Of a stretch of 17,246 nucleotides of DNA, positions 3,001 through 6,000 are shown in pieces (the stretch's first letter is position 1; each line of letters starts with the position of its first letter). The DNA is from a virus (taxonomy: Duplodnaviria > Heunggongvirae > Uroviricota > Caudoviricetes), in IMG/VR virus record IMGVR_UViG_2526164630_000028, one strand, 5' to 3'. A program made the position numbers.

Positions 3001-6000
3001 TATCACAAGGATAATCGGCGTGGCAAATGACATATTTTTTCCTTTGCTCACCAGTTCGATGATTAACGGAAGTTCTTCTGCTTTATGGGCAAGAGCTTTA
3101 GCCAGAATTTCTTTGTCGTAATCGAGATTAAAGAACCAGCCACCGCCATTAAGCAGCCAGTGATTGACGTTTCCACGCTCTGATAAGCCATCAATCATCA
3201 TTTGCTCATGGTTTCCACGTACAGCTCTGAACCAGGGGAATGTGATTAATTCCAGGCATTCTACGTTCTCTGTACCGCGATCAACCAAATCGCCCACCGA
3301 GATAAGCAGGTCTTTTTTGGTGTCGAATCCTATCGTCTCCAGTTTTTTCATCAGGTTCGTGTAGCATCCGTGCAGATCGCCAACTACCCAAATATTTCGG
3401 TATTTGCTGCCATCAATTCTTTCGTAGATATTCATGCAACCTCACTTCTGCTGTTTCGCAGTTTTTTAAGTTTCTGTTGATACTCCGCCTTGATGGCCCT
3501 GCACTCTTCGACAGTCCAGCGATAGCGGTTATGGTTTGATTCGATTTCCTCTACTGCTTCCTGCCCGATGCGGCTAATCAGTTCGACGCGATACGGAACG
3601 AGATTTCCGCTTTTGTGCTGGTTGCACACCACGCATTGCTTGTGAATATTGCGTTCATCAAATCGGAGTTGAGGTGCCGCAGCAGTTGTCCGGTAATGTC
3701 CGGCATCCCACTGAGCAGACGTGAGCGTTCCGCACGAGATACATGGTAAGTCGCGGTCTCTTTCTCTGATGAAGGCGTTTACGGCTTGTTGGGCTTGTTT
3801 AATCCAGTAACTGCGGGGCTTTAAGGCGAGTTTTTGAATCTTAAGTTTATCTTTCTGTTTCTGCTCCTCTCGTCGTCGTTTCTTCTCTGCTGCTTTTTCC
3901 GCTTTTTCGCGTTCTTTACTTCGTCGTTCGAGTGCTATCCTGGTTCCACAAATCTCATTACACCAATATTGATTTTGATATTTTGGTATAAACCATTCAT
4001 TGCAACATTTACATTTCCTTCGATAGATTCGCATAAGTGCTCCTTTCGTTGCCGGAAAAATCACCGTAATACTTATCTCGGGCTTCTTCAGCAACTAGTA
4101 CCGCTAACTCCAGATCATCAAAGCATCCGAAGTGTTTACTCTTGCCATGGAATCCTAGCCTAACATTCCATTTTTTCTGTCGTTTGTGCCAAGTAACCCC
4201 TCTGCAACCTGATTTGCTATTCTTTCGGATCCTTATATTTCTTGAATTTTCTATTGGCAGGCATTCTCTTAAATTTTCTGGCCTATTGTCGGTCCTAATT
4301 CCATTAACGTGGTCAATTTGACCAGCAGGCCAACGATTATGAGTTATGTAAAAAACTAAGACGTGAGTTTTATATCTACGCCCATCTATCATGATCATTG
4401 AATAACCGTTGGAATCAAAAGTTCCAGCAACACTATTTAATGCTATCCTTCCCTGAGTGGGAACTTTCCATCTAAATACCCCGGTAGATTTATCGAAACT
4501 TAGTAACTCAAATATCCTTTTAACAGTTAAATCTTCTCTTTTACGGTTACATCGTCTTCGCGCTGGTTTAGCCATCGCCTTCTTCCTCCGTAATGGTTTT
4601 CTGAATTTGGCCACCTGAACAGAGCTCACCAAAGCTATGGATGTCGGTATTTCCACAATACCAAGATGGCGAAAATAACTGCATGATAAGCCTCAGGGAA
4701 AAGGGAAGACACTACCCCCGATAATTCAGAAACAAATCGAAATACATGAACTAAAGAAAAAATCACAACAAATAGAAATAGAAATATTAAAACAGACCAC
4801 CACATTCCTGATGTCATACTCACTAAACAATTTTTCGACAACATGGTAGCTCATAGCACGTTATCGTGTAGACACCCTCTGCTACGTATTCGGTGTTCAG
4901 TGCAATATCTACAAATACTGGAAAAATCTAAAATCGAGGCAAGTTTTTAGTGATAACTATAGTTAGACTATATTGACGACCTGATGTGCTGTATGTAATA
5001 ACTAACAAAAATATTTTCCATGGGATTTTTATTTTAATGAAATGCAAAATATTTTTATCAATAGTTAGTATTATGGAAAACCATTAATTCAGGAGGAAAC
5101 TTGATTCCAAATTCAACTTCAAATAAAGGTTATGTATGCATTGACATGCAGTGTTCGTCAACCTCTGAACCAACAGCTTCTACCTCCAGCAACCGGAGTA
5201 TTAAATTAGCCGCTTCCACAAATGTATATCCGATAACAAGAAACGACTCCGAGCTCACTCTGAACGATTTTCTTGATAATAGCTCTTCTACGTCATCATT
5301 GGACTACATTAATGAATTGGGTTCTCAACTGACGTTAAATGATTTTCTTGACAAAATAAAGACAAATGAGGTGGATAGAACATGTACGGATGTGGTAATT
5401 AATATCCCACAAGAGATACAAACAAATACACAGGAAAATGATTTGTTATTATCCGATAAAAATAATTCAATATGCATTGAAATCGATGAAAGAATTACAA
5501 AAATCCTAACATGCAAGCAAAAATATCAACTGGACAGCATCATTCATGAAATTATACCAAAAGAGAATGAGAGTGCAGAAACTGTTCTCCATCTTATGAG
5601 AGTTCTGAACGATCAATATCATCAGGTATATAATCAGTCAGGATGTTTTTATAAAGCCTATATGGCCATACACAATAAAATCGAACAGATACTTCCATAT
5701 GCGTTCAGAGCCGGAGGCGGAATCAGCATTCACTTGCTCATACAGGCATTATTTTTTAATGGCGACTATAACAAATCACCTTCACAGTCTCAACAACCAT
5801 CTTTATATACATCACCTTCTCCAACAATAAATACAGAAGCATTCTTAAGTAATGTATTATCACTAGATATAACCCAGGTACGCATACTTGGTGATTTACT
5901 ATCAGCAACTTTATTTCATGCACCAACAATATTCTGTCAATATCCTAAACTAATAGATGAAGTTAAGTATTGTATAAGTAATAAAAAATAACAGGTTCGG

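Follow-up and report, generated by a model that had tools for sequence, protein, structure and literature searches.

The window analyzed here, a stretch of 17,246 nucleotides (nt) from the IMG/VR virus record IMGVR_UViG_2526164630_000028 (Caudoviricetes), represents the early-right/nin region of a defective lambdoid prophage and contains an HNH endonuclease gene at the 5' end of ninG (rap). We consider it probable, at roughly two chances in three, that this gene belongs to the free-standing homing-endonuclease genes of the HNH_3 plus AP2 type and is lodged in the ninG 5' end of the lambdoid nin region. The reading that best accounts for the observations is intronless homing with captured translation signals, for which we infer cleavage, a target and drive. 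The inserted unit (the cassette) combines three parts, a nuclease body joined in frame to the first nine codons of ninG, a Shine-Dalgarno sequence, and another ninG 5' end that is complete but AT-rich and divergent (the patch). Through the fusion, the nuclease body inherits the ribosome-binding site of ninG, its ATG and its coupling to ninF; the second 5' end restores a full-length NinG.

Captured start and second 5' end of ninG

The HNH protein of 188 amino acids (aa) starts MAKPARRRCNRKRED, and NinG of phage HK630, representative of the lambda type, starts MAKPARRRCKNDEC (its longer N-terminus reads MAKPARRRCKNDECREWF). The original prediction had noticed a resemblance between MAKPARRRC and the NinG N-terminus as well as the lack of an HNH gene at this place in lambda, and had placed the HNH gene inside the first codons of ninG. 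Comparison of nin regions with and without the HNH gene bore out all three points. In lambda, HK630, HK544, 434, mEp234 and others, ninF directly abuts ninG, and no HNH gene is present. The resemblance is an exact identity over nine residues and over 29 of 29 nt from the ATG in the ninG genes of HK630 and E. coli E21845 (ATGGCTAAACCAGCGCGAAGACGATGTAA, corresponding to MAKPARRRC plus 2 nt of codon 10), with abrupt divergence beyond nt 29, an agreement far beyond chance. The 17 nt upstream of the HNH ATG also mostly match lambda-type ninG and form the outer part of a left homology arm, as homology to lambda-type ninF/ninG stops at 4592. The left junction is sharp (4547/4546) and is not intergenic; it falls within ninG codon 10, with ...CGATGTAA on the ninG side and CCGTAAAAG on the nuclease side. 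Among 60 loci (57 from IMG/VR, the window, E21845 and AU6Stx1; labels beginning with L are our own), it is the same in 59, the remaining one (L060) showing a single-nucleotide polymorphism.

That the nuclease gene captured the ninG start codon and ribosome-binding region, as originally proposed, follows from three observations: the core of the HNH family does not start before residue 16 or so (LTVKRIFELLSFDKSTGVFRWK), none of the HNH homologues carries MAKPARRRC, and the motif is native to NinG. Indeed, several NinG alleles natively start with K-P-x-R-R-[KR]-C, a motif that is invariant in 81 HNH-less loci with lambda-type ninG (a comparison set of the 80 closest to HK630, which understates HNH-less diversity), and more distant alleles share a Cys-rich RR[KR]C motif. 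The leaders of HNH homologues measure at most about 10 residues in 14 of the 16 aligned (longer in two), and the nuclease gene seems to have lost only about one to three codons of its own at capture. The overlap between ninG ATG and ninF stop in lambda has an exact counterpart in E. coli E21845/O/A, where the HNH ATG takes the place of the ninG ATG. As for the start itself, a longer reading frame from GTG 4656 (215 aa) is open in the window, GenBank gives a 201-aa protein for AU6Stx1, and RefSeq gives the 188-aa ATG in window-like and ninF contexts alike. The ATG of the 188-aa open reading frame (ORF) is the sole start common to all contexts and is hereby fixed as the correct one. A consensus scan of the minus strand revealed no promoter belonging to the HNH gene.

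Downstream of the nuclease body, ninG begins at a different Met and overlaps the HNH ORF by 26 nt, both as originally described. The accompanying proposal of a replacement start for ninG stands insofar as the gene has its own ATG and Shine-Dalgarno sequence; what it received is not makeshift, being a complete, homologous and divergent 5' end of 28 codons. The NinG product matches the Pfam NinG family over its full length (2.5e-83, profile positions 5-192 of 193), and the match takes in both the Cys-rich N-terminus and a C-terminal H-N-H-like motif. Its Cys pattern (C8, C10/11, C25, C29) parallels that of lambda (C9, C14, C28, C32), and a complete counterpart of the lambda-type pattern MAKPARRRC-KNDEC-REWF...C...C-GT is kept, down to the final ...C...C-GT; a ninG ORF of 200 or 203 aa is preserved in 52 of 56 loci (window included). 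The origin of the patch explains the odd MRIY... N-terminus of this NinG. Aligned in frame with lambda-type ninG, the patch shows 53 identical positions in 94 columns (about 56% nucleotide identity). The guanine-plus-cytosine content amounts to 28.6% in the patch, 39.1% in the HNH body, 48.9% in the rest of ninG and 50.8% in the lambda-type equivalent of the patch, and by composition both HNH body and patch are foreign to ninG.

The right side of the cassette is not a point junction: identity to HNH-less ninG jumps to about 100% at 3950, where near-identity resumes at TGTGGAACCA. Compared with HNH-less phages, 596 bp stand in place of 63 bp (ninG codons 10-31), which, together with the second ninG 5' end, amounts to a partial duplication of the ninG 5' end and not to a simple insertion. 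The notion of an insertion into ninG is thus retained for the sharp left junction and has to be revised for codons 10-31, which are replaced by the HNH body and a foreign ninG 5' end. Since both copies of the ninG 5' end contain ATGTAA, the TAA that stops the HNH ORF finishes at the ninG position corresponding by homology to the left junction; HNH homologues end about 10 aa earlier than this ORF, whose last residues represent read-through into ninG.

The same repeat allows the order of events to be read backwards, with the HNH-ninG' arrangement as the ancestral one and lambda-type ninG as the product of a deletion fusing the HNH start to ninG, since a deletion between the two homologous ATGTAA positions would yield an in-frame ninG. 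Such a product would, however, consist of MAKPARRRC followed by patch sequence and not by the lambda-type KNDECREWFHPAF (about 56% DNA identity), and the KP-RR-C N-terminus is common to several NinG alleles and found in no HNH homologue. Together with the foreign composition of HNH body and patch, these observations effectively refute the reverse polarity, which we consider extremely improbable. Removal of the 538 nt between the ATGTAA positions also keeps the reading frame, as expected of a self-splicing group I intron within ninG whose exon 1 would be the first 29 nt and which would carry the HNH gene in the manner of I-HmuI, the intron-encoded enzyme with the closest solved fold. We can give hardly any credence to an intron, as no Rfam family (group I introns included) matches 3700-4900 at E-values up to 1 and the ORF fills the entire insert, leaving no non-coding room for a ribozyme core. 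The HNH gene resides neither in an intron nor in an intein: it forms an independent ORF that ends in a stop of its own, and the gene downstream has its own Shine-Dalgarno sequence, ATG and complete N-terminus. The coordinates of the cassette and its flanks are collected in Table 1.

Table 1. Features of the HNH-ninG cassette and its borders in window coordinates; the HNH gene, ninG and all associated parts lie on the minus strand
Feature	Coordinates	Strand	Description
Retained ninG translation-initiation region	4576..4592	-	ninF 3'-end remnant; GGAGG 9 nt upstream of ATG
Captured ninG start	4547..4575	-	29 nt
HNH endonuclease ORF	4009..4575	-	188 aa; ATG 4575, stop 4009-4011; Pfam HNH_3, phrog_99
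HNH-specific DNA	4035..4546	-	512 nt; not in lambda-type phages
Shine-Dalgarno of downstream ninG, AAAGGAG	4040..4046	-	5 nt before ninG ATG, within HNH 3' end; read from sequence
HNH/ninG overlap	4009..4034	-	26 nt
Divergent ninG 5' patch	3951..4034	-	84 nt, 28 codons; candidate cleavage-resistant version of the target
Right homology arm	3880..3950	-	Near-identity to HNH-less ninG
Full-length chimeric ninG (rap)	3432..4034	-	200 aa, ATG 4034; foreign 5' patch plus lambda-type body; phrog_171

Nuclease family, fold and relatives

The HNH ORF comprises an N-terminal beta domain, an HNH (beta-beta-alpha-metal) motif and a C-terminal AP2-like DNA-binding domain. Its product matches Pfam HNH_3 with 42.7 bits (cutoff 24.8, E 4e-11) and phrog_99, "HNH endonuclease", at 1.4e-71, and the residues found invariant in the family alignment (D88, H89, N101, N110) are present. 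The AlphaFold2 model has a mean predicted local distance difference test score (pLDDT) of 87.8, with low confidence only in the first 10 and the last ~18 residues; residues 180-188 fall below a pLDDT of 50, and this tail is predicted to be disordered. The model places the HNH/HNN catalytic motif in a beta-beta-alpha-metal fold, as in HNH (His-Me finger) endonucleases. The C-terminal domain is of the AP2 type by its predicted fold, resembling plant AP2/ERF domains (AtERF1, 1gcc, with a template modeling (TM) score of 0.67 and a root-mean-square deviation of 1.3; WRI1, 7wq5; TEM1, 7et5), and remains sub-cutoff by sequence (22.2 bits against Pfam AP2, cutoff 33.3); a sequence search of the PDB with the HNH protein gave one AP2 match, which was insignificant.

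Among PDB structures, the HNH homing endonuclease I-HmuI of phage SPO1 (1u3e) is the best Foldseek match of the model (probability 1.0), AP2 domains also ranking at the top. The two proteins have in common an HNH_3-type catalytic domain with extended DNA-binding modules; they share only 18% identity at a TM score of about 0.4, and I-HmuI is an intron-encoded nicking enzyme with a helix-turn-helix C-terminal domain, whereas the C-terminal domain of the cassette protein is AP2-like and its gene has no intron. The architecture of Pfam HNH_3 plus AP2 is that of the HNH-AP2 endonucleases of phages and cyanobacteria, in which an HNH catalytic core precedes an AP2 DNA-binding domain, as it does here; the cassette lineage differs from them in being known only at the ninG position. 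The origin of plant AP2 domains was reportedly treated by Magnani et al. in 2004.

A tblastn search returned 3059 phage records with HNH relatives, mostly free-standing HNH or homing endonucleases of virulent T5-like, T7-like, Salmonella, Klebsiella and Vibrio phages. Only four AU6Stx1/SH2026Stx1 records reached at least 99% identity to the HNH protein, and the remaining phage relatives stayed below 60%. No protein 47-99% identical to it was found among ~5.8 billion proteins. The nearest relatives beyond the cassette show 42-47% identity, the two closest lying in short contigs and not beside ninG, and the sole relative in species-representative genomes (39%) comes from a metagenome-assembled genome of Planctomycetota. 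One 42% relative, in a T7-like metagenomic contig (L070, 1033-1927), lies directly behind the T7 endonuclease I gene, whose product is likewise a junction-resolving enzyme; this parallels the placement of the HNH gene at ninG/rap and may be a coincidence.

The patch was traced in the same way. Its 41-aa translation, searched by tblastn against phages, found only HNH-bearing records, everything else being at most 64% identical. When 1.84 billion representatives were searched exhaustively with HMMER, no closer allele emerged (best 68%, conserved tail included), and a degenerate DNA pattern for the start of the patch had 0 matches in 185,579 species-representative genomes; a word-indexed protein search yielded 7 short fragments only, which were uninformative. 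A locus that had seemed a candidate for the ancestral donor (L012, HNH-positive with a very different ninG body) was rejected, as it merely contains a truncated ninG.

Distribution, exchange and proposed homing

Filled and empty sites occur in the same canonical context, ninB-D-E-X-F-[HNH]-G-H-I-Q, as in E21845/O/A, where the order is ninB-ninD-ninE-ninX-ninF-HNH-ninG-ninH-ninI-Q. Empty sites in complete E. coli genomes match the window from 4592 to 4547 and then again from 3950 downward, and flanks common to filled and empty ninF-ninG sites are 95-99% identical. In a set of 5426 complete E. coli genomes, the HNH-specific DNA was found in 538 (about 10%) at 564 places, all with at least 99% identity, the patch in 538 at 569 places, and an intact empty ninF-ninG site in 834. 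A genome contains up to 3 copies of the cassette; carriers are mostly Shiga toxin-producing E. coli (O157:H7, O26, O111, O145), and the cassette is found in Stx1 phages as well. Thus, the presence/absence polymorphism at one site in homologous genomes that characterizes homing genes is observed here. In phage records the patch appears only together with the HNH gene. E. coli cases with an apparent patch without HNH, or with a partial patch, were considered as possible recombinants and rejected, as all of them proved to be insertions of insertion sequences (IS). Examples are IS2 and another IS3-family element located in or beside the patch in E. coli Z1323CEC0014 and PK8241 (L067 and L068, respectively); the AT-rich patch may be a favored IS target.

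Across the 60 loci, the cassette is found in at least 7 upstream and at least 8 downstream contexts, in many combinations. Nucleotide diversity is 0.000-0.011 inside the cassette, ~0.02 just past the right border (a step from ~0.003 to 0.020) and 0.06-0.08 toward the ninG 3' end. No fixed differences separate HNH-positive ninG bodies from the 81 HNH-less ones, and the two groups have 4 haplotypes of the ninG body in common over the first 360 nt and 7 over the first 120 nt, which together mean that exchange has taken place repeatedly and precisely at the border of the cassette. Of the 60 loci, 59 have an intact HNH ORF, the exception (L062, IMGVR_UViG_2526164629_000012) having a 1-nt deletion that truncates it at 76 aa. 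Segregating sites comprise 11 synonymous per 119.7 sites and 12 nonsynonymous per 444.3 sites (pN/pS ~0.29), including changes of family-invariant residues (N101S in L053, P83T in L055) and, in L060, C9R within the captured ninG codons. To judge by these sequences, the data show one young unit, repeatedly joined to differing ninG backgrounds exactly at its borders and encoding a protein under constraint.

The probable mechanism would follow the established model of intronless homing with co-conversion, known from SegF, SegG and MobE of phage T4 (PMC2988022). Upon co-infection or co-induction, the nuclease would cut HNH-less ninG in or near the 63-bp segment that the cassette replaces, which encodes the conserved Cys-rich N-terminus and is highly conserved among HNH-less alleles. 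Repair from the HNH-positive genome would then proceed through two short conserved arms (the left one of ~46 bp, the right one formed by the ninG body) and would copy in the nuclease gene plus the linked divergent patch. The HNH-positive allele would be immune, as the cassette would interrupt its target and the divergent patch would take the place of that target. The cassette probably originated when an illegitimate, one-sided repair fused a broken end of ninG to the nuclease gene at its 5' end.

Several observations weigh against this homing interpretation. The patch, 44% divergent and strictly linked to the HNH gene, replaces a conserved segment of 63 bp; this linkage is no proof of a role in immunity, because the divergence of the patch precludes recombination with lambda-type DNA, and the lack of homology would also enforce the association. 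Cleavage, target and biased inheritance are themselves inferred, and ordinary Red/RecA mosaicism could suffice to spread a module that has conserved arms on both sides. A donor lineage with the patch or a close HNH relative was not found in the phage, protein and species-representative searches. The sub-cutoff AP2 score and the narrow HNH-less comparison set count in the same direction. Finally, E. coli O157:H7 Z1812 (NZ_CP062727.1) contains on one chromosome both the HNH-positive cassette and a consensus HNH-less ninF-ninG junction (loci at 1,234,350 and, as L152, at 3,858,486-3,861,622), the latter within a decayed prophage whose bet and Q are truncated, and the same pair is present in many O157:H7 genomes. 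The HNH-less junction is thus stably kept beside an HNH-positive prophage, which implies that no conversion takes place in lysogens, i.e., in the repressed state. Such coexistence is compatible with a nin region that is silent until induction, as expected for a delayed-early gene, but does not support homing.

The same facts can be viewed as those of a passive module of one illegitimate origin, spread only by general homologous recombination among lambdoid phages and prophages, with a nuclease that exerts no drive and is neutral, decaying or unrelated to ninG. The strong mosaicism of lambdoid nin regions with their many upstream and downstream contexts, the conserved flanking arms open to Red/RecA exchange, the coexistence of both alleles in O157:H7 chromosomes and the variants N101S and P83T together with the one frameshift would all agree with it. 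We nevertheless regard passive spread as unlikely, though deserving serious consideration, because nearly all ORFs are intact at a low pN/pS, the phage members of this protein family are typically mobile, and the combination of very low cassette diversity, a sharp border step and many ninG haplotypes fits recent repeated movement. A further alternative, improbable in our view, is a nuclease of competition that cuts rival lambdoid genomes, in ninG or elsewhere, and thereby excludes their markers or replication, its position at ninG being incidental. Both the nuclease family and the DNA-binding domain are those of site-specific phage nucleases, and the position and the lack of an own promoter suggest co-expression with recombination functions in the delayed-early operon. 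Yet the HNH protein matches no PADLOC defense model, and the ninG 5' end has been duplicated and has diverged specifically at this locus, which argues for ninG as the relevant site. Moreover, marker exclusion is mechanistically the same as intronless homing (PMC2988022), which makes exclusion a re-description more than a true alternative.

Prophage setting and relation to known nucleases

Read on the minus strand, the window includes a C-terminal fragment of cI, an IS3-family element, O, P, ren, NinB, Dam, a moron, HNH, NinG, a broken NinI, an LpxR-like moron and Q. The segment around HNH/ninG is 98% identical to the Stx1 phages AU6Stx1 and SH2026Stx1, and at most 66% of the whole window is covered in any complete E. 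coli genome. Although the prophage is defective, its HNH and ninG genes are intact. The IS3-family element (10140-12422; orfA 11209-11535, orfB 11535-12422) lies between the O gene and the cI fragment, in the expected place of cro/cII and the cI N-terminus, and O is apparently frameshifted into two overlapping ORFs (10454-11038 and 10140-10628). The gene of the serine/threonine phosphatase NinI (2771-3435, minus strand) is disrupted, leaving an N-terminal ORF of 157 aa and a fragment of 49 aa, and the window differs from lambda and E21845 in having no ninH between ninG and ninI. Between ninI and Q, in the opposite orientation, lies a gene of the LpxR family of lipid A deacylases/outer-membrane proteins (1600-2559, plus strand; Pfam LpxR, 8e-40), and such a gene also adjoins the HNH-less ninG of the defective O157:H7 prophage.

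The place of ninF, directly upstream of the HNH gene, is occupied by an ORF for a hydrophobic 69-aa product that matches no family (4635-4844, minus strand), and a weak terminator-like hairpin is located at 4719-4703. The AT-rich moron (phrog_9230, a 590-aa protein of unassigned function with neither Pfam nor PADLOC match) is a pseudogene in the window, split into ORFs 5101-5991 and 6045-6641 (both on the plus strand), and is intact, with 1773 nt, in AU6Stx1 and E. coli Z1322HEC0006. A gene pair on the plus strand, 13591-14133 (weak DUF6978 match) and 14121-14897 (DUF1828), directly follows the cI C-terminal (S24 peptidase) fragment, at the position of rexAB in lambda. It shows weak PADLOC matches to a candidate defense pair, PDC-M24A (3.7e-4) and PDC-M24B (6e-7), and is possibly a prophage-encoded defense module.

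Among known systems, the T4 genes segF, segG and mobE provide the nearest parallel (PMC2988022): a stand-alone nuclease gene beside a conserved phage gene, presence/absence polymorphism between related phages, divergent sequence near the nuclease in the bearing genome, and double-strand-break repair with co-conversion (for the cassette, a prediction), MobE being an HNH enzyme too. They differ in residing in virulent T-even phages, whereas the cassette belongs to a temperate lambdoid phage or prophage; in that the cassette gene is non-intergenic, fused in frame to the first 9 codons of its neighbor and accompanied by a duplicate 5' end; and in that cleavage and biased inheritance are, for the cassette, predictions. 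A precedent for start capture is gene 31 of Salmonella phage epsilon34, an HNH gene that captured the N-terminus of a resident gene in frame, as noted once in this P22-like phage (PMC2629481). That gene belongs to the early left operon and to another HNH lineage, with relatives in Lactobacillus phages, and no duplicated or replacement 5' end was reported for it (PMC2629481). In Aeromonas phage Aeh1, a free-standing HNH gene (mobE) lies inside the nrdA coding sequence and the host function survived, nrdA being split into two polypeptides ("genes in pieces"), according to the account of Friedrich et al. (2007) given in PMC2988022. Unlike Aeh1 nrdA, ninG is still one ORF of full length, since the insert brought along a complete alternative 5' end.

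Hundreds of records already label the gene "HNH endonuclease", and N-terminus capture and the insertion of HNH genes within coding sequences were both known. The distinctive feature here is the combination of start capture with a portable replacement 5' end; the literature searched contained no description of the ninG element, its junctions or the linked replacement 5' end. The system is easy to test, since lambda crosses and Rap assays are standard. As a tentative extension, the cassette could be an active gene drive among lambdoid and Stx prophages, which would break HNH-less ninG upon induction or co-infection, force gene conversion locally, at a distance of 1-3 kb upstream from Q and stx, and measurably shape Q-stx inheritance (Stx-phage mosaicism); it would be a self-contained unit of "drive plus pre-immunised target exon" that keeps the invaded recombination gene functional. 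Given the location of the cassette just upstream of Q-stx, an active enzyme would create a local recombination hotspot in Shiga toxin phages. Overall, the cassette suggests how a homing-type nuclease gene may solve the problem of landing in a coding sequence without an intron: start signals are taken over, a spare divergent 5' end is supplied, and the host gene still works.

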